Origin: Anolis carolinensis | Lineage: Eukaryota | Direction: 5' to 3' | Assembly (NCBI RefSeq): GCF_035594765.1 | Contig: NC_085845.1 | Location: forward strand, 123,210,897 to 123,274,896 | DNA length: 64,000 nt | Part shown: positions 2,980 through 42,012 of the stretch, in pieces | How the letters are laid out: every line of letters starts with the position of its first letter | Position numbering within the stretch: position 1 is the first letter of the stretch | Program-made: the position numbers and the translations under genes | Notes under the pieces: model-generated | What the model was told of the DNA's origin: nothing | The model's database searches: none | Seen by the model: the letters and a program-made list of their open reading frames with translations, nothing else

Positions 2980-3736
2980 GTAGCTATAGAACATCCTTCT
3001 CAACTTCTTTTCTACCCATCATCACATCGCCATAATGCACATACCACATAAATCACTTTTCATGATCGGAGATCCATCTTGTGGAGGATGGGTCATTATG
3101 AAAAAATCCTGCTGTTTGGGAAGGGCAAGGAGAGATATCTATTTATCTAATGCCTATATTACTGGATCTTTCTGAAAACCTTTTGAGGAGAAAACCTGCC
3201 CCACCCCCATACCTTCAGGGCACATTACCAAAACTAAGTTTACTCACTTTGCTTGGAATTTAGCCAATGAATCTCTTTCTATATAAATATACATATTAAA
3301 CTGCCAGGCCAATTTCAAACCAGATGGATTTCTTCTAGGGATATTAAACTAGTGGACTAGTGAAATGCAAGTTTGCAGTAGAAACTGAATTAATTACTCA
3401 GGATACTCTTGCAAGGGGAAAAAGAAAATGTGCATTTATTGTCTCAAAAAATTAATCTTAGGAAATGAGAAAAAAGTTGACTTAGAGCTCATCAGTATTG
3501 GGCAGGTTAGTGTGGTATAAATCTGGTCGACAACAGCTCCAGATCCATCATATATGTACTGAATTTGGGGCTGTTGTCCAGATGGCCCAAGATCATATCA
3601 GATGAATTGGAGTGTCACCTCCATGTCACCACCATTGCTACTTCTATTTGGCCACAGAGCTCCATCGAAGAGCCAGTCCTAGTTACCCACACAGTCAGCA
3701 AGAAAGAGGAGACCAATCTCCCTCCCTTCTAGCTGT

Positions 3737-15475: not shown

Positions 15476-17059
15476 TAGCTGCATGTTTCACCAGAAAATA
15501 GCATTTTACTATTATCATTAACAACACCTTATGTAGTCCATTACATGTTACGCAATATTTTAATAATTGCTATTCCTATTACTTTTCTGACCCGTCTTCC
15601 CTCTGTCCCTTTTTTTAAAAAAGAAAAATCAATCTAAAGGAAAGGAGAGATTATTTCTTTTTGTGGTTGGGAGGGAGAATCTAAAAAATGACCTTAAAGC
15701 TAATGAGAAAAAGCGATTAGTAAATGTTCTCCAGTACTTGATAAAATATTCCCCATTATACATCATCTTATTTTATGCAAGGAATATTACTGGTGTGTCA
15801 TTACCTAATAAGGTAACATATTACATTTACAGTCCTTGCTGATAATACTTACTTTCTCTCCAAGCTTTACTCAGATGAGATGCCAATAGATGATATGGTA
15901 CAATACCTGCTGAGCTATCTTCATCAGTTTTTTTTATCTCTCAAGTGTGATTGAGGTATTAGAAATGGCAACAATGTTGTGTCCAGTAAAGGGGGCTTTC
16001 ATAAGTTTTCCTGGAACCTGAACTCAACAACAAAATGAAGACAAGGGACCATATCAGAAATGTCAGGCAAAGTGGGACAAAAGAAAGGAACAGCAGGGTG
16101 AATCCATTGCCACACTAACAGCTTCCTCCCGGAAATGTTTTCCCTATCGCAGGAAGTGTTGCCCTCCTGGGAAGCCTCCCATGTTCTGGGGGAAGCATCC
16201 AATGGCACTTTCCCCCCAGTTGAGGGCGGAGCCTCTGCCAGAAGCCACATGACATCAAGTGATGACTGGAGTAGGGATCCGTCCTGAAGTTGGCGAGGAA
16301 GCATCCTAGGACACTGGTTTCAGTAAGTATGATGAGGTCCAAGGTCCCTTTTTGTTATGCAGCACTAAATCCATTATTTAATGGTCTTGGCTGAAGGGAG
16401 GTTTCTAGTTGCTACTTTCTTTCCTGGGATTCATACCTTGTTTCTAAAATAAATGGCAAAAGGATATATATATATCACCTCCTTACTGCTTCAAAATATT
16501 TGGTTTGCTAGATACAGTAGTTGCCTCTTTCCTTTACAATGGATAGTTCATATCTCTGTTCATTGAAAACTCTGTTTTCCCATCCCTTCTGCTATTCACA
16601 AAAGATGTAAGTAGATTTCGAACTGGCAACAAACATTATATTTTTCTTCACAGTGGTTTCCTGCTGGGACATGCATGCATATACAGACACATACACATTC
16701 TGCCCACAGTCTTCTCCACCTGTTTTATTGACATATGTGCACACTCATTGCTACTTTGGTGGGAGGCAACAGGGAAAGCAATGTTTACATTGACAGCCTG
16801 GAGAACAGACTGTGAATATCATCTCTTTAGGGATGGAGTCCACCCTGTGATTCATTTCGTACTTGTGCATGGGTTTCACAATCCGTTGTAGACACCTTTT
16901 GAAAGTTGTATGCCAAGGTCCACAGTATGAAAGCCAAGAAAGAATATAGCTTATTAAAAAAATTCACAGAGAGTGATAAATGTATAAAGATACAGTTCAT
17001 CTGCTGCACCTATGATACAAAAGAGAAATATAGACTGTATCTGAATGGGATACATTCAA

Positions 17060-17253
17060 AGACACAGCCCTCCCCATGGATAACTGAAACTGTGCATAGT
17101 TGTAAACTCTGTATTTTGAGTATTCTAGTGTTGGAAGAATGCCATAGAATCACACTGGAGAACCTAGGAAGGCCTACAAACACTTTCAGGGTGCATAATT
17201 TTTTTAGCATAGATAAGTGAAACCATGGATATCAACACTGTGGATAAGGGGGC
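17060..17253. mobile_element. Tigger/pogo-like MITE remnant
   Basis: ggataa.tgaaac repeats and a gtggataagggggc terminus; resembles 32853-33069. Confidence 0.45.
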
Positions 17254-18291
17254 CAGAGCCAGACCTAGGTATTTTTCCAGTGTAGGCGAACAGAATTTTG
17301 GCACCCCCCCCCAAACCAATCACTGAATAATAAAAACGTTGGATAAGCGAAAATGTTGGATAATAAGGAGGGATTAAGGAAAAGCCTATTAAACATCAAA
17401 TTACATTACGATTTTACAAATTAAGCACCAAAACATCATGTTTTACAACAAATCAACAGAAAAAGCAGTTCAATACATGTTAATGTTATGTAGGAATTAC
17501 TATATTTGCGAATTTAGCACCAAACATTGAACAGGGATATTGGACAGTGTAGATAACCCAGATAGCCCCCGGTATTAAAAAAAACCCCTCTAAAATCAGG
17601 ACAATAAATAAAGAACAACACTCTGAAAACAGGAGAAAGACAGACAGTAAACCATCAGGGACAGCTAACACCTCCTAAAAATTCTCCCAGGCAAGAAGAA
17701 GCCAGGCCTTGAAGCCATAGGGCCATTAAATGCTAATCAAGGTGATTAATTAGAGTTCGTTCTCCCACCCTGGACCTTGTACAGATATATAAACCCCACT
17801 TACCTCACAATCTCTGAAGGCCCCAAAGGCATGGGCAGGCACGGGCACGCGGGCAGGCCTGGCATGGGCACGCGGGCAGGCCTGGCGTGGGCATGCGGGC
17901 AGGCCTGGCGTGGGCACACGGGCAGGCCCGGCATGGGCACCCAGGCAGGCCCAGCGCTCCAGCAAGCGCTGGGCTACCCGGTAAGTGCTGGGCCGCCCAG
18001 TGCTCGCCGGAGCACTGGGCAGAAGAGGAAGGCCTCGCTAGGAATGTGTTTGGCGGCTTCTCTGCAAAGACCTGAACGCCTTCCTGGCGAGAAGGAAGGT
18101 GTTTGGGGCTTTGCGGAGCAGAAAAGCACCGCTTCTCTGCTCCCCAAAGCGGCGACCCCGGCTCCTTCCTTGCGGAGGGAAGCGCAGCATTGGAGGCAGG
18201 CCGCAGGAGACAGGAGTTGCCTTGATGGTGCCCCCAACATGATGGCGCCACAGGCAACTGCCTAGTTGGCCTGGTGGTTGAACCCCCTCTG
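17254..18291. mobile_element. Composite non-autonomous hAT element (CAGGGCCGGCCC-type TIR) carrying mariner-MITE and Penelope fragments and a 23-bp GC tandem repeat
   Basis: Ends cagagccagacc...aaccccctctg; imperfect 8-bp TSD aagggggc/aaggggct. 17337-17525 is the reverse complement of the MITE at 21189; 17570-17815 is Penelope-like. Confidence 0.75.
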
Positions 18292-19311
18292 AAGGGGCTC
18301 ATAAAATTATATAAAAATTATAATTTCAGTGTCCTCCTTTCCTCAAGTAGGGGACTTTCAAAAGATCTAGATCAAGGCTTTTAAATTTTTTTATTTATGA
18401 CCCTTTTTTGGGATAAATTTTTACATGACCTCAGGGATATAAAATAGGCATATGAATATAGCATTTAATTATAAAGAAATTTATTTTAAAACATTTCTTT
18501 GGTGTAGGGGTGTTGGAGTCATACTTTTGTATGTATGTATTGATGAAATACATTGATATTACTTAAATAATATTTACTGCCTTCAGTGCATGGCAATGAT
18601 TTACACAATGTCACATTCTACACTTCAAGAAACTGTTTTTATTGATATAATTGTGTGTAAATATTTTAATATACAATCTAGTGTGGAAATTATAATACTT
18701 TGAGCCAATAGTAAACTATAATACCAGTGAACACTTTGAGAATCCAGTTGACTACATAATATTGTTTCTTACAATTGCTTGTTGTGGTTATACAATCCTG
18801 AAATACACTATCTTGCTGGATGGTTATCTCACATTTTGCATTAGAAGAGAAATGCCCTTTTGTTTTCATCTCACTTACGCTTTCTTATCTAGGTTGTGGC
18901 CCAAAGAAGAAAATCAAAATCAATGGAGCAGATGTTTTTCTATTTAGGTTCTTCATTTTGAAACTTAATGACTTGCTACAAGAGCAAACATCTGGCTATG
19001 TGCAGAAGTAGATTAACATGCTTCCTTTGATTCCTTCAGGACAGGTGTAACAAGCTTAAGGGGGGAAATCATGCCAGATTCCTCTTGGTTTTTAGTCGAG
19101 TGTAAAACAAAGAATGCCAATAAAAGGACAAAAGGTAGTTGCATATCTTAGCATATGTTTTTAATTTGTCTTTGAACAAACTGATTCATTCATGAAGTAG
19201 TCATTGTTCTGGGGTATCTGCTACTTTTGCTGTTGTTACATGTCTTCAAGTCAACTCCAGAATACAATAAATTTCTAATAGGGATTTAGTCAAAGGAGAT
19301 CATTGGTTTTG

Positions 19312-20174
19312 TGCTTGTGGTTGTTGCTGTTGTTATTATTTATTTATTTTTTAATATTGAGAAGTGTGACCATGGACATTATGCTTGCAAGAGGAATAGT
19401 CTGGAACAATGCATGTATACATTCTACATAGAGCTGATCTATTTAGAAAATGTTTACATATCTGATCTATTTAGAGGATGTTTATATATTTATCGAGCTT
19501 TGCTCAATACATATGCAGGGCCGGCCCCACTAATGAGGCACCTGACGCCGCCGCCTCGGGCGCAGGCCCGGGGGGGCGCCTCCCGCCCAGTGCGCCCTGG
19601 CCCGTCTGGCCTGCTAGAAAAGGCCAGACGGGCGAGCGGGAGTAGCGTGGGAGGCGGGGCCAGCTCTGACGCCGCTCCCCCCCCCCGCCCAGCGTGCCTT
19701 GGCCCTGCCTCCCACGCAGCGTGGGAGGCGGGGCCAAGGCACGCTGGGCGGGGGGGGGGGGGGAGCGGCGTCAGAGCTGGCCCCGCCTCCCACGCTACTC
19801 CCGCTCGCCCGTCTGGCCTTTTCTAGCAGGCCAGACGGGCCAGGGCGCACTGGGCGGGAGGCGGGGCACCGTCAGGGCGGTGCCCCGCCTCCCGCCCAGC
19901 CTGACGGCGCCCCCCCGGGCCTGCGCCCGAGGCGGCGGCGTCAGGTGCCTCATTAGTGGGGCCGGCCCTGCATATGTATTGAGCAAAGCTCGATAAATAT
20001 ATAAACATCCTCTAAATAGATCAGATATGTAAACATTTTCTAAATAGATCAGCTCTATGTAGAATGTATACATGCATTGTTCCAGACTATTCCTCTTGCA
20101 AGCATAATGTCCATGGTCACACTTCTCAATATTAAAAAATAAATAAATAATAACAACAGCAACAACCACAAGCA
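19312..20174. repeat. ~860-bp inverted duplication (palindrome centred at 19718)
   Basis: 19312-19579 is the reverse complement of 19907-20174, and the inner arms also pair. The right arm has a ~50-bp hairpin absent from the left arm. Confidence 0.95.
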
Positions 20175-20782
20175 GTCGCGGCCTGGAGAAACCTCCGCTG
20201 AGTCTGGCCTGCTACAAAAGGCCAGACGGGCGAGCGGGGGTAGCGTGGGAGGCGGGGCCAGCTCTGACGCCGCCCCCCCGCCCAGCGTGCCCTGGCCCCG
20301 CCTCCCACGTTGCGTGGGAGGCAGGGCCAAGGCACGCTGGGCGGGGGGGGGGAGCGGCGTCAGAGCTGGCCCCGCCTCCCACGCTACCCCCGCTCGCCCG
20401 TCTGGCCTTTTGTAGCAGGCCAGACTCAGCGGAGGTTTCTCCAGGCCGCGATTGCGGCCTGGAGGAACCTCCGCTGAAGTCTGGCCTGCTACAAAAGGCC
20501 AGACGGGCGAGCGGGGGTAGCGTGGGAGGCGGGGCCAACTCTGGCCCCGCCCCCCCGCCCAGCGTGCCCTGGCCCCGCCTCCCACGCTGCGTGGGAGGCG
20601 GGGCCAGGGCACGGGGGGCGGGGCCAACTCTGGCCCCGCCCCCTCACTATTCGCCCTGGCCCCGCCTCCCAAGCAGCGTGGGAGGCGGGGCCAGGGCACG
20701 CTGGGCGGGGCCAGGGCGCCGGTGGCGGGGGCGCTTTTCAGCACCCCCGCTTTACATCAAAAAATATCTCCGGCCGGCCCTG
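19516..20782. mobile_element. GC-rich non-autonomous hAT element, internally rearranged
   Basis: TIR CAGGGCCGGCC...GGCCGGCCCTG; perfect 8-bp TSD TACATATG (19508-19515 and 20783-20790). Confidence 0.92.
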
Positions 20783-21188
20783 TACATATGACTTGCAATC
20801 GGGCTTTTAGGCAGGGAAATGCACCCTGCCATAGTCTGAACAACAACAGGCTGGGTGGGGAGTGTTCTCCAATTCAGTTTCTAAAGATCTGTCAGATGCC
20901 ATCTGAGTATCAAAATTATTTAAATTTTTATTTGTTTCAATGTCTAGAAGTTCATCTTTGGTCATCAGGAGGTAGTCAGGCCATTCTAAATCTAGTGTGT
21001 GTTACTTCAGTATGTGGCCAGAATGAAATATTTGCCATCCTGTTTTTAAGGTAAATCTACAAGAAATTATTTTTAATGCGTACTTAGGGATTAGTCTCAG
21101 GGTTTGGTCTTTCAATGAACTCTCCCATCTCTCTGTCACACATACACAGATTCGCTACTCTTACACTATATACAGAAAAACTATGGTA

Positions 21189-21497
21189 CAGTAGAGTCTC
21201 ACTTATCCAACATTTGCTTATCCAACATTCTGGATTATCCAACTCATTTTTGTAGTCAATGTTCTCAATACATCATGATATTTTGGTGCTAAATTCGTAA
21301 ATACAGTAATTACTACGTAGCATTACTGCATATTGAACTACCTTTTCTGTCAAATTTGTTGTATGACATGATTTGGTGCTTAATTTGTAAAATCATAACC
21401 TAATTTGGTGTTTAATAGGCTTCTCCTTAATCTCTCCTTATTATCCAACATATTCGCTTATCCAACGTTCTGCGGGCCCATTTATGTTGAAGAGTGA
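21189..21497. mobile_element. Tc1/mariner-type MITE
   Basis: TA|CAGTAGAGTCTCACTTATCCAAC left TIR and internal ttatccaac repeats; right TIR degraded. Confidence 0.8.
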
Positions 21498-21884
21498 AAA
21501 AATTGTCTGGGGTTTTCTTTCTTTTTCCCCCCTGAGATTGGTCAGGTGAAACCATAATGTTTCTTGAATGCTGACAGTCTCCATTTCTGTTGTATTCTCC
21601 AGTCCCCACCCCATTTTAGATAACCCACCATAGGATGATTCCCAATTACCCAGACAAGCGTTTCACATCATCACAACAAAACTTGTCCTAGGTTTGAAAT
21701 GGCTAAATTGTCAGCAATTTTCTGCAGGATTATTGTGTGTGCATGTGAGGGGGGGGGGGGGGGTTCTTCCTAAATCACCTGAATTCCAAAGGCAATTGGC
21801 AGGCCTGATCCACATTGGAACCAATACCATCCCATCTTATCCCTAAATGATCCTAAAATGGATTAACTAATGGCGCATCTACAC

Positions 21885-22019
21885 CAATGGTTCTTAACCT
21901 GTGGGTTCTCAGGTGTTTTGGTCTACAACTCCAAGAAATCCCAGCCAGTTTACCATCTGTTAAGACTTCTGGGAGGTGAAGGCCAAAACATCTGGGGACC
22001 CAAAGATTGAGAACCACTT
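21885..22019. mobile_element. Palindromic hAT (Charlie/SPIN-like) MITE
   Basis: CA.TGGTTCT.AACC...TTGAGAACCACT TIRs, self-complementary body, degraded TSD atctacac/atctaact. Confidence 0.75.
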
Positions 22020-23122
22020 ATCTAACTATAGAATTAATGACATCACTTTAACTATTATTGCATGAAAACTGTAGTTTTACAATGTCTTTAGCTTCGTCTG
22101 CCAAGTAGAGATGATACCTCACCAAACTACAACCCCCATGATTCTATCACACTGAGTCATGGCAGTTAAAGTAGGGTTGACACAGTAGGTCTCAAGATCC
22201 AGCTCCCTCCTAAAACCTCACCTATGCAACCTCCCTTTTCCCCTGTTCCCTATCTATTTGTGTGTCTGTGATCTGATCTGACCAGTTTCCCTTTCCAAAA
22301 AACACAAATATAAGAAATAGTCTGATTCAGTAACTGCTCTTGTCATCACTCAGATGCCTGCAAAATGAAGCTCCAAAGAGTGCCTGTGAAGGTTTGGCAA
22401 GGCCTTGAAAAGGCTCCATCTCTTCCTGTATCATGTACAGAGCCACATGCCGCAATCTCTGGCCTCTATTCCTGGAGGCCATTAAATGCAAACTTTCCCT
22501 CAAGTGCCATTCATCACACAGGTACAGATATATATCTTTTCCTACAGAAATCTTCCCATAGCTTTGAGGTTGTAGTATATGTTCAATTCGTCATTCTGTT
22601 TAAAGCTAAGGAGGTCTTTGTGAAGGGACTATTTGGCTCACTTGTCTTTTCTTTGAAGTTAAATATTATAGTGCAGGCCAAGACAAATATTAAATTTTAG
22701 AATCTCTGGCGAACACCTTCGAGACATGGCATGATAAAGAATCATGAAGTGTCTTCTCATTCACCCAACAGAGAATCCTCAATTGGAGGCATTTCCTAGA
22801 AGGACTAACAAGGGATAACTCGCTCTACTGTTACTGACTGATCAACATCACAATTATGTTTACCAGATCTGGGAATCTGGCTGAGGTTGTATATGACATA
22901 ACACTGACCCATCAATATTTTGGCGTTGATATGTTTCACCGTAAATAGCTTTAAGAATGGTTTTTGGGGCAGCAGAGTTTGTTTCATTTGAGATTGATTT
23001 CATTTAAATTAAGTCCATTTTAAAATCCAATTTTATTCTCTTATCTTCATTTCCCTGTTGGGACGACAATGGCATTAGAAATGATAGCATATCACCATGA
23101 TTCTTTTGCTTCAAGAGTCATT

Positions 23123-35761: not shown

Positions 35762-36553
35762 TACTCTGTAAATTTTTATGTGCAAATTTTGTTTAAAATA
35801 AGCCTTGAAGATAGTCAGTTATATAATCTCTTTTGAATCTCATAATTTTTAAGACTTTGGAGAACTGTTGTGATTTCTAATATCTAATAAACACTATGTT
35901 TGTTACTACCAGATTCATTGTAACTGTTTTAGAGATTACAGCATGTTTAATTCCAATAAGACATGACATGATATCATTTTATTTAATGTCTATAAAGAGA
36001 GAACAGGCTGAAAAAAATGTTTTGAAATAAAGCTTGCTGAAAAGAGGTTCTCTAGCCTATAAACTGAGGAATATCAAGAGAAAGATTGAGGCTTCTGAAC
36101 CCAAAGCCCTTGAAGTACTTTCTCTAAGAAACTCTGTTAAGATCAGAAGCTCAAAGGGGAACATACTGTTCTTGCTTCGAACAAGAACCTTCTCTATTAC
36201 AAGTGAAAGCTTTTCAAGGGGTTACCAATAAACATCATATAAGAAAAAAATGGCAGTTACAATGAAGACATAGATGACTTCCAGCAACCTTCTCCTGAAG
36301 TACAATTCTTGTGTATATAGATATTTTACTTAACATTTCTGATATCTATCTATCATCTATCTATCTATCTATCTTTTAAAGTATTAACCCTGTTATCACT
36401 TAAGAAATGACAGGTCATTTACAAATCCTGATATGTGTGGCACTAGGTTTGGGATAGATAGTGTGTACTGTTACTGTCGTGTAGTTTTCCTGCTTTCAAG
36501 GGTCAGCAGCCAATATTTAGCTCTTAGGCTTGGACCGGTCGAAGGGTGATCAT

Positions 36554-37120
36554 CAGGGGCTGCCCTAGGTAATTTCGCTTTGTAAGCGAACCTAGTGGCC
36601 GCGCCCCCCCCCGTGAAATCACGCCCCCCACCCCCGCACATACCTGCTTCGGTGGCAGTGGCGGCGGCTTCGATGGCGGTGGCGGCTTCGGCGGCGGCGG
36701 CTTTGACAGCGGGGAGGACCATCGCCTCCCTCCCAGGTGAAGGCCTTCCACGTTTGCCAAGGAGGGAGGCGACGGTCCCGCCGCCGCCTCCACCCTCGGC
36801 AAACGGGGAAGGCCTACTGCGGCCTAGCTATTCTCACAAAGTCTCACGAGTCCTTGCAAGACGTCGCAAGTCCTCGCGAGAATAGCTAGGCCGCAGTAAG
36901 CCTTCCCCGTTCGCCAAGGAGGGAGGCTGCAGCAGGGACCATCACCTCCCTCTCAGGAGAAGGCCTTCCGCGTTTGCCAAGGAGGGAGGCAATGGTCCCC
37001 GCCACCTCCTCCCTCCTCGGTAAATTTACATGGGGGCATTGTCGAGGCCTCAACAGTGCCCCCCCCATGGCGTGCGCCCAAAGTGGCCGCTTAAGCGGCC
37101 TCCACGTTGGACCGGCCCTG
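36554..37120. mobile_element. GC-rich non-autonomous hAT element
   Basis: caggggctgccc...accggccctg ends; perfect 8-bp TSD GTGATCAT; internal direct repeats and a hairpin at 36805-36908. Confidence 0.9.
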
Positions 37121-40720: not shown

Positions 40721-41353
40721 TGTCCTGTTTTGTCTGTTAAGAACAGCCTTAAAACAATGTGGTAAGTAAATGAAAACTGCTTTACTTCAGCAAAACATAA
40801 AGAACAGCAGTATAATGCAAAAGAAAGCAAGGAAGTCTTAGGGCAAACACAGTTCTTAGTCTCTGATGAATTCCCAAATCAAGTAGCAGTCTTTCTTCAG
40901 ACAAAGAAACAGCGATAATTCCTTAGGAGCCGTTTCCCAGATGCAGACTTGAAGCAGGCACAAGGGGAGCGAAGGCCTAGGCATTAGTGTCAGTTTGTTA
41001 CCAGGAAAAGCTGACTGCACCTGCTTCTACTTTATAACCCTGAGTCCCCTCACAGCTGCTAGAGCAGTTCCCAATTACTCAGCTGCATTTCTGGCAGCTA
41101 TTCTAGCTAAACAACATCTCTGTTTCCTTTTGCCTCTCCTGAAATGTGGGTACTTGCAAAATCTCCTCCTCAGATTCCAACTCCCCCTCAGCAAGAGGAA
41201 CATAGTATGGAGCAGCAGCAGCAGCAGCAGCAAGGCCTGTCCTCCTCGTTCGTTCTCTTCTGGCAGTGCCTCCAAATCAAGGTCCAGGCCTTGAGGCGGG
41301 GACTAGGACTCCTCTTCTTCTTCCCTCCTCCTCCTCATCAGGAGACCTCAACA
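40721..41353 (-). mobile_element. Old Gypsy-type LTR
   Basis: Minus strand reads TGTTGAG...CAGGACA with an acidic U3, an RCCLARIAAR motif, TTATAAA and AGTAAA; no TSD recognised. Confidence 0.5.
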
Positions 41354-41720
41354 GGCCTAGGCAGGCCAGGTGTTCCCTGAGGAAGAATGCCTCTCCAGAC
41401 TTGGCAGAGGTGCTGGGGGTGATGGAAAAGAGCCTCTACCATTTCAGAAGGGTCATGCTACTTCCTCCTTCGGCCCTGCCCCCTCCACCTCTCCAGAATG
41501 GCTGTTGGGGGGTACTGTAGCAGGGTGTGCTCCAATGCCCACAGGAGCATTTTTGGCAGTGGCAGTGATGGCAGAGAAGCCTTCCCTGCCAGATCTGGGC
41601 CAGGGCCCTGCTGCAATGCCCCCAGGGGCCTGACACCCATTCTGGGAAGGCAGCAACACAGCCCCTCTGAAATGGCCAATTCATGACCCCCAGGTTGAGA
41701 ACGGCTGCTCTAGGGAAAGG

Positions 41721-42012
41721 TAAAAGGTAAAGGTTTCCCCTGATATTAAGTCCAGTCATGTCTGACTCTGGAGGTTGGTGCTCATCTCCATTTCTAAGCC
41801 GAAGAGCCAGCGTTGTCCGTAGACACCTCCAAGGTCATGTGGCCGGCATGACTGCATGGAGCACCATTACCTTCCCGCCGGAGAAGTACCTATTGATCTA
41901 CTCACATTGGCATGTTTTCGAACAGCTAGGTTGGCAGGAGCTGGAGCCAACAGCGGCCGCTCCCGCCGCTCCCAGGGTTTGAACCTGGGACCTCTCGGTC
42001 TCCAGCTCAGTG
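41721..42012 (-). mobile_element. Sauria SINE (5'-truncated)
   Basis: Family sequence; 11-bp TSD ctagggaaagg. Confidence 0.92.

Follow-up and report, generated by a model that had tools for sequence, protein, structure and literature searches.

Fold-back rearrangements in a young hAT-type transposon family of Anolis carolinensis, some with a third terminal inverted repeat and captured host flank

Copies of a young hAT-type transposon family in Anolis carolinensis have been rebuilt around their own hairpins. The window analysed is a stretch of 64,000 nucleotides (NCBI RefSeq assembly GCF_035594765.1, contig NC_085845.1, positions 123,210,897 to 123,274,896, forward strand), in which one copy contains an inverted duplicate of its left end together with adjoining host DNA. 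Six independent fold-backs, each with its own intact target site duplication (TSD), are present in ~440 copies of the family (~1%); they include the window copy, which was given as the starting point, and a copy (L060) whose left end lies outside the 445 left ends counted below. The preferred reading, with a probability of roughly 0.55, is that each of the six arose when a resident copy was broken at the tip of a hairpin and its left broken end folded back and primed synthesis on its own strand. The products, their recurrence, the local origin of the template and the letters at the junctions are direct observations.

The window element (19516-20782, 1,267 bp) is, judged by its sequence, a non-autonomous hAT-type element with a perfect 8-bp TSD (Table 1). 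The first-pass annotation had described intact TSD and terminal inverted repeats (TIRs), a palindrome of ~860 bp with three TIRs, an exact reverse complement of the left flank behind the internal TIR and a hairpin of ~50 bp in the right arm alone. All these features are found in the assembly sequence, where the palindrome measures 863 bp (19312-20174) and the small hairpin lies at 19850-19899. Positions 19312-19580 and 19906-20174 are 100% complementary over 269 nt. At the return junction the letters GCA are common to flank and element, and 22-25 bp of the left arm of the family hairpin H2 are missing if the ancestor was the 1.0-kb form. The captured flank at 19997-20052 and its template hold a 28-bp tandem duplication (89%). 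No host gene was identified, with no Pfam match for the 65 of 178 open frames examined, and 17000-23000 has no Rfam match. Window positions 36001-37000 and 41001-42000 are GC-rich (0.49 and 0.55) and may be promoters.

Table 1. Features of the rearranged element and its flanks, in window positions.
Feature	Position	Strand	Remark
Host flank, template of the copy, 204 bp including left TSD	19312..19515	+	sequence comparison
Left TSD TACATATG	19508..19515	+	single copy at the empty site in run X15
Left TIR, 11 bp common to right end	19516..19526	+	
Mini-element, 455 bp, two left ends	19516..19970	.	none found at other sites
CGCC microhomology	19577..19580	+	scar of 46-bp deletion private to left arm
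Family hairpin H1, arms ~115 bp, centre 19718	19604..19836	.	first switch in right arm, 19731-19836
Inverted copy: left end (46 bp retained), TIR, flank	19837..20174	-	minimum newly synthesised, 338 nt
Third TIR, internal	19960..19970	-	inverted left TIR
Captured inverted host flank, 204 bp	19971..20174	-	exact
GCA microhomology, return junction	20172..20174	+	on H2 loop
Rest of element	20175..20782	+	98-99% identity to many other copies
Right TIR	20772..20782	-	
Right TSD TACATATG	20783..20790	+	

The family is marked by a perfect 8-bp TSD in all 34 distinct copies that show both ends (two further loci, with one end outside the view, are left out of the count) and by short TIRs that start with CAG and have 11 terminal letters common to both ends. 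Copies are mostly ~1,000 or 1,277 bp long, i.e. about 1,000 + 277n. H1 and H2, two strong hairpins, alternate along their interior with a period of 277 bp, and the family form of H1 has a predicted energy of -167 kcal/mol. An exact left-end 20-mer occurs 445 times in the genome, a figure that includes at least 7 extra ends within rearranged copies and misses older ends. Many loci match the right 608 bp of the window element at 98-99%, and terminal divergence has a median of 1.8% (45 copies).

Orphan families described from the same species, hAT-N6/N7/N8_AC, are young, have an 8-bp TSD and no known transposase, and measure 810, 288 and 329 bp, as given in the passages on them in Novick et al. 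2010 (PMC3014272). By these descriptions the present family resembles them in its 8-bp TSD and its youth, and differs in its lengths of ~1,000 + 277n; its TIR agrees with 11 of the 12 letters of CAGAGSCGGYCC, the comparison being one of descriptions only. The ordinary element may itself have descended from a fold-back, because its second H1 unit mirrors the first and its H2 loops run in both directions (66 AATC and 32 GATT in 45 elements).

Other rearrangements are also found in the family. Nested inserts are present in the three long copies examined. L046 (1629-3795; G000:C1:243.88 Mb) has three tandem left ends with a period of 373-375 bp within one TSD pair, as well as a deletion from just beyond an H1 loop to an H2 loop. 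The left terminus of L047 is tandemly duplicated over 22 bp (1996-2041), and in L049 (838-7501) a stretch of 2.3 kb or more, covering the left part of the element and its flank, is directly repeated with an offset of 4.3 kb, an identical 8 bp adjoining both left ends. Long inserts between near-identical direct repeats of ~980 and ~970 bp, respectively, interrupt copies at L048:1618-8049 and L050:1998 to L051:5870; they are probably LTR retroelements and occupy nearby positions of the 277-bp unit. L042 is truncated at an H1 loop (3336-3343), its right end being absent within the 7 kb in view.

Recurrence of the fold-back was found in several ways. Among 30 loci matching the right part of the window element, one (L041) has a left end facing the wrong way, with the same design and a different TSD, and a genome-wide pattern for mirroring about H1 matches two places, the window and L041. 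A head-to-head pair of left ends (L055) was found among 374 of the 445 left ends, and a genome-wide pattern for mirroring about H2 matches four places (L055, L059, L060 and L062). Left-end fold-backs with deeper axes were covered by the same 374 left ends, read by eye, with two head-to-head pairs closer than 1 kb; fold-backs of the right end gave 0 matches in a genome-wide pattern for the two outermost right hairpins. Mirroring is about H1 or H2 in all six copies. Four of them have a duplicated TIR and captured flank, of 204 bp (window), 186 bp (L041), 10 bp (L055) and 5 bp (L059), and in L060 and L062 the inverted copies end inside the element, at positions 24 and 21. At L055:5200-5600, ~1.3 kb from the fold-back copy, the sequence resembles, by eye, coding DNA for cadherin repeats.

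Nesting of one copy within another is ruled out by the flank that follows the internal TIR and by the two cases that stop inside the element. Inverted triplication is likewise rejected: there is no third, direct copy, and the element sequence resumes in 6/6. Double elements formed by alternative transposition have a new junction exactly at the TIR, with a new TSD; the inverted copies here do not fit this, as they extend 204, 186, 10 or 5 bp beyond the TIR or stop within the element, at positions 21 and 24.

The 5-6 events in ~0.5 Mb of family sequence may be set against ~0.17/Mb for human-chimp events, a figure derived from PMC5453318 and a 3-Gb genome; species and methods differ, and the argument does not lean on this comparison.

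The first-pass annotation had seen in the window copy a new mini-element and a route for cargo acquisition. Both exist as structures, and no moved copy of mini-element or cargo was found: every match to the genome-wide patterns has its own flanks, with no rearranged copy at a second site. Its proposed search for other copies carrying the 204-bp cargo found none elsewhere among the candidates scored, the two genome matches both being this locus (1.85 Gb; 40 of 513 candidates scored).

The template of the inverted copies can be traced through private variants. L059 has one at position 22, present in each of its two left ends (2 of the 55 ends examined), and L062 has one at position 36 (1 of 55), read by eye; because these variants are mirrored in both arms, the template is the same locus. 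The copied TIR of L059 contains one substitution. Overlaps at the return junctions of the six copies are 3, 3, ~3 with a short templated insertion (L055), 0, 3 and 2 bp. Post-insertion fold-back synthesis, as the first-pass annotation had suggested, gains support from the five further copies, the mirrored private variants and these microhomologies of 0-3 bp.

The points of return are concentrated at hairpin loops. Four of the six copies return at or within ~4 nt of a major loop: the window copy and L062 on it, L059 3 nt short of it and L060 1-4 nt past it. Under uniform landing with a 5-nt tolerance, a null that takes no account of sequence biases, this has P ~0.002. L059, L060 and L062, found after the idea of loops arose and before it was put in writing, fit in 3/3 cases (P ~0.001). 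The returns of L041, 10-13 nt past the loop, and of L055, at a minor hairpin loop, are away from major loops and count against the preferred reading.

Internal deletions follow the same pattern. A survey of 39 of 48 elements aligned to a long copy (the six fold-backs, the reference and two copies >1,600 bp being left out) yields seven with deletions of at least 60 bp that are neither whole units nor 9-bp slippage (L003, L004, L006, L008, L028, L029 and L054). In 7/7 the sequence resumes at most 3 nt from a major loop, and these loop-to-loop deletions have overlaps of 0-2 bp. The junctions were read from the letters, since in L006, L008 and L028 the alignment program had broken up gaps or put them in the wrong place. 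L003, L004 and L008 had been chosen for their likeness to the window junction, L003 and L004 having one shared junction, and the other four copies are at loops in 4/4. Ordinary 78-bp slippage deletions at a 9-bp repeat are present in L023, L049 and L058.

The two arms of the window palindrome differ by the small hairpin. It is kept in all ten ordinary copies aligned, and the left arm has therefore lost 46 bp at CGCC; on this comparison the right arm represents the ancestral form and the left arm the deleted form, which has a single occurrence in the genome. A gain of the hairpin in the right arm is ruled out by its presence in ordinary copies and the uniqueness of the deleted form, and a subfamily lacking it by the ten ordinary copies and the same uniqueness. 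The centre of H1 has three asymmetries that stay in the family's forward orientation, so the switch took place in the right arm of H1 and not at the axis. The first-pass annotation had set the symmetry axis on a recurrent hairpin of the element at 19718; an inner hairpin is indeed centred there, and it is the placing of the fold-back exactly at this axis that the forward asymmetries rule out. Given the switch interval, the inverted copy is 338-444 nt long.

The preferred reading would bring these features together in five steps. The resident copy would break at the H2 loop. After resection, the right arm of H1 would pair with its left arm and an unpaired tail of 22-25 nt would be trimmed. Synthesis of 338-444 nt would then run backward, copying left end, TIR and flank in turn, and the new strand would be released and joined to the right broken end at GCA. 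Finally, slippage would remove 46 bp of the left arm, either in the course of fill-in or at a later time. We infer the break, the enzymes and an independence from transposase; initiation by a break is argued from the fold-back and deletion junctions at loops. A plain intramolecular fold-back leaves the loss of 46 bp from the template arm only unexplained, so that the extra slip is needed. The H2 loops in both orientations also speak against this reading, as a route of inter-strand switching may be open in the family; spacer inversion requires such switching, according to the section of PMC5453318 on the switching model.

Public sequence from other animals was consulted as the first-pass annotation had proposed, with four runs from four studies, as Logan contigs on 19880-20300 (32 of 1,621 pieces listed). 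The right flank adjoins a single TSD in run X15, which is an empty site, and the insertion is therefore polymorphic. A 1,670-letter contig of run X18 crosses the site without entering the element. In run X1 a contig leads from the left end of the element through the flank and continues unbroken for 294 letters after 20174; depth in this run is flat as far as 20164. This suggests that X1 carries a simple insertion allele, contigs being evidence of presence and not of absence, and both contig and depth are as expected of such an allele. No piece bridging the junction 20174/20175 is among the 32 of 1,621 pieces listed for the four runs, a point against the preferred reading, and support for the rearranged allele comes entirely from the assembly.

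Abortive gap repair following excision by transposase has a minor but appreciable chance of being the right account. The element would leave one chromatid, both flank ends would copy the sister, the new left strand would fold back at the hairpin and copy into the flank, and the ends would join. Such a process would suit a family as young as this one (median 1.8%) at a polymorphic site (empty in X15), with TSDs intact in 6/6. Folded new strands opened at the tip would likewise end at loops, and PMC8277862 describes capture by the filling of gaps that excision leaves. The same source would lead one to expect larger gaps and breakpoints nearer the ends, whereas the window copy has lost just 22-25 bp; a transposase partner would moreover be required. 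From the final sequence, gap repair and a break at the hairpin tip are not separable.

A template switch at a replication fork, with no break, is doubtful. Its four points, in the order 3-2-1-4, would have the new strand leave H1 in its right arm for the other parental strand, copy backward along that strand, and return downstream. This order is the one seen here, and it makes up 31% of high-confidence human-chimp events in the results reported in PMC5453318. An inter-strand template would account in one event for the 46 bp kept in the copy and lost in the left arm, and inverted loops are common in the family. Returns at loops are not predicted by such a switch, nor are deletions from one loop to another with overlaps of 0-2 bp, and the short templated insertion of L055 would rather resemble end joining. 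The fork switch is thus simpler for the one-sided loss but without account of the loops, and a break is favoured over it because the copy rejoins the element at the loop of a hairpin.

An artefact of assembly or library, arising in a GC-rich hairpin, would fit the lack of a bridging piece among those listed for the four runs and the origin of all six cases in one assembly, but is unlikely to the point of being improbable, given arms that differ by a 46-bp deletion unique in the genome, one substitution in the copied TIR of L059, re-entry into the forward strand at a second junction in each case, six different flank lengths, and runs that may be from other animals with different alleles, with rare paths dropped from Logan contigs.

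Hairpin fold-back repair is known mainly from induced yeast breaks and cancer genomes. The ~440 near-identical, still polymorphic copies of this family form a natural vertebrate reporter, in which fold-backs and deletions land on hairpin loops. They also offer a concrete route by which a DNA transposon gains adjacent host DNA and a third end, within the limits of a cargo without known function and of rearranged copies of which no moved one was found. Recurrent capture of flank by fold-back in one transposon family was not found described in a full-text search by titles and abstract starts, most subscription journals, and with them the earlier studies of double Ds in maize and niv-525 in snapdragon, being outside its scope. 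In the literature searched, the recurrence in one family with copied TIR, captured flank and loop junctions is undescribed, the class of mechanism having been described already; the same literature gave no answer as to whether a pair of left ends is enough for a hAT element to move. A more speculative and rather improbable extension is that of a self-breaking transposon, whose hairpin tips would be cut in the germ line often enough for ~1% of copies to be rebuilt with a third TIR and host flank, giving a steady source of mobile carriers of cargo and of long hairpins, like that of Mu killer, that would silence their own family.

Several known systems resemble parts of this structure. In maize Mu killer, two identical transposon ends face each other around an inverted duplication, as they do in four of the six copies here. 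Mu killer contains transposase sequence and silences MuDR, whereas the present copies have no coding sequence and keep their right end; the likeness is one of shape only, as far as the description in Skibbe et al. 2012 (PMC3440606) goes. Small inverted triplications are of similar size and involve fold-back or strand invasion at a palindrome and later loss by slippage, in the portion of Lei et al. 2026 (PMC13334657) on their formation. They have a third, direct copy (DUP/IN/DUP), which is present in 0/6 copies here. The four-point switch 3-2-1-4 shares with the window copy its order of switch points and an inverted repeat product. Its events, looked for in a search of unmasked sequence, are short, and the model, in the sections of Loytynoja and Goldman 2017 (PMC5453318) that set it out, is silent on cause and loops.

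Single-copy Pack-TIRs are similar in that, once inserted, they capture nearby host DNA, show microhomology and a small deletion, and do not spread further, as presented in parts of Tan et al. 2021 (PMC8277862). They are recognized by non-element DNA with a parental copy nearby; here this DNA measures 204 bp, its template directly adjoins it, and there are two matches. Unlike Pack-TIRs in that description, the cargo is inverted, continuous with a copied TIR and recurrent in one family. For the lizard assembly anoCar2, the table in PMC8277862 gives 0 Pack-TIRs and 0 hAT consensus sequences.

The closest likeness in mechanism is to local foldback inversions, proposed to arise at yeast breaks by the same steps in the relevant passages of Yu et al. 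2024 (PMC11724301) and Al-Zain et al. 2023 (PMC10622511). As described in PMC11724301, an inverted repeat near the break, trimming of a short tail, synthesis templated by the strand itself and a join with the other end are common to both, and microhomology at the second junction is 0-5 bp in yeast and 0-3 bp in 6/6 copies here. The yeast events, in the same passages, are mostly 5-34 bp, up to >150, and arise at induced breaks, whereas those described here are at least 111-338 nt, natural, in a vertebrate, and seeded by the transposon's own 115-bp arms, with TIR and flank copied. By analogy, the window copy may be regarded as a special case of a single-copy Pack-TIR that would work like a foldback inversion.
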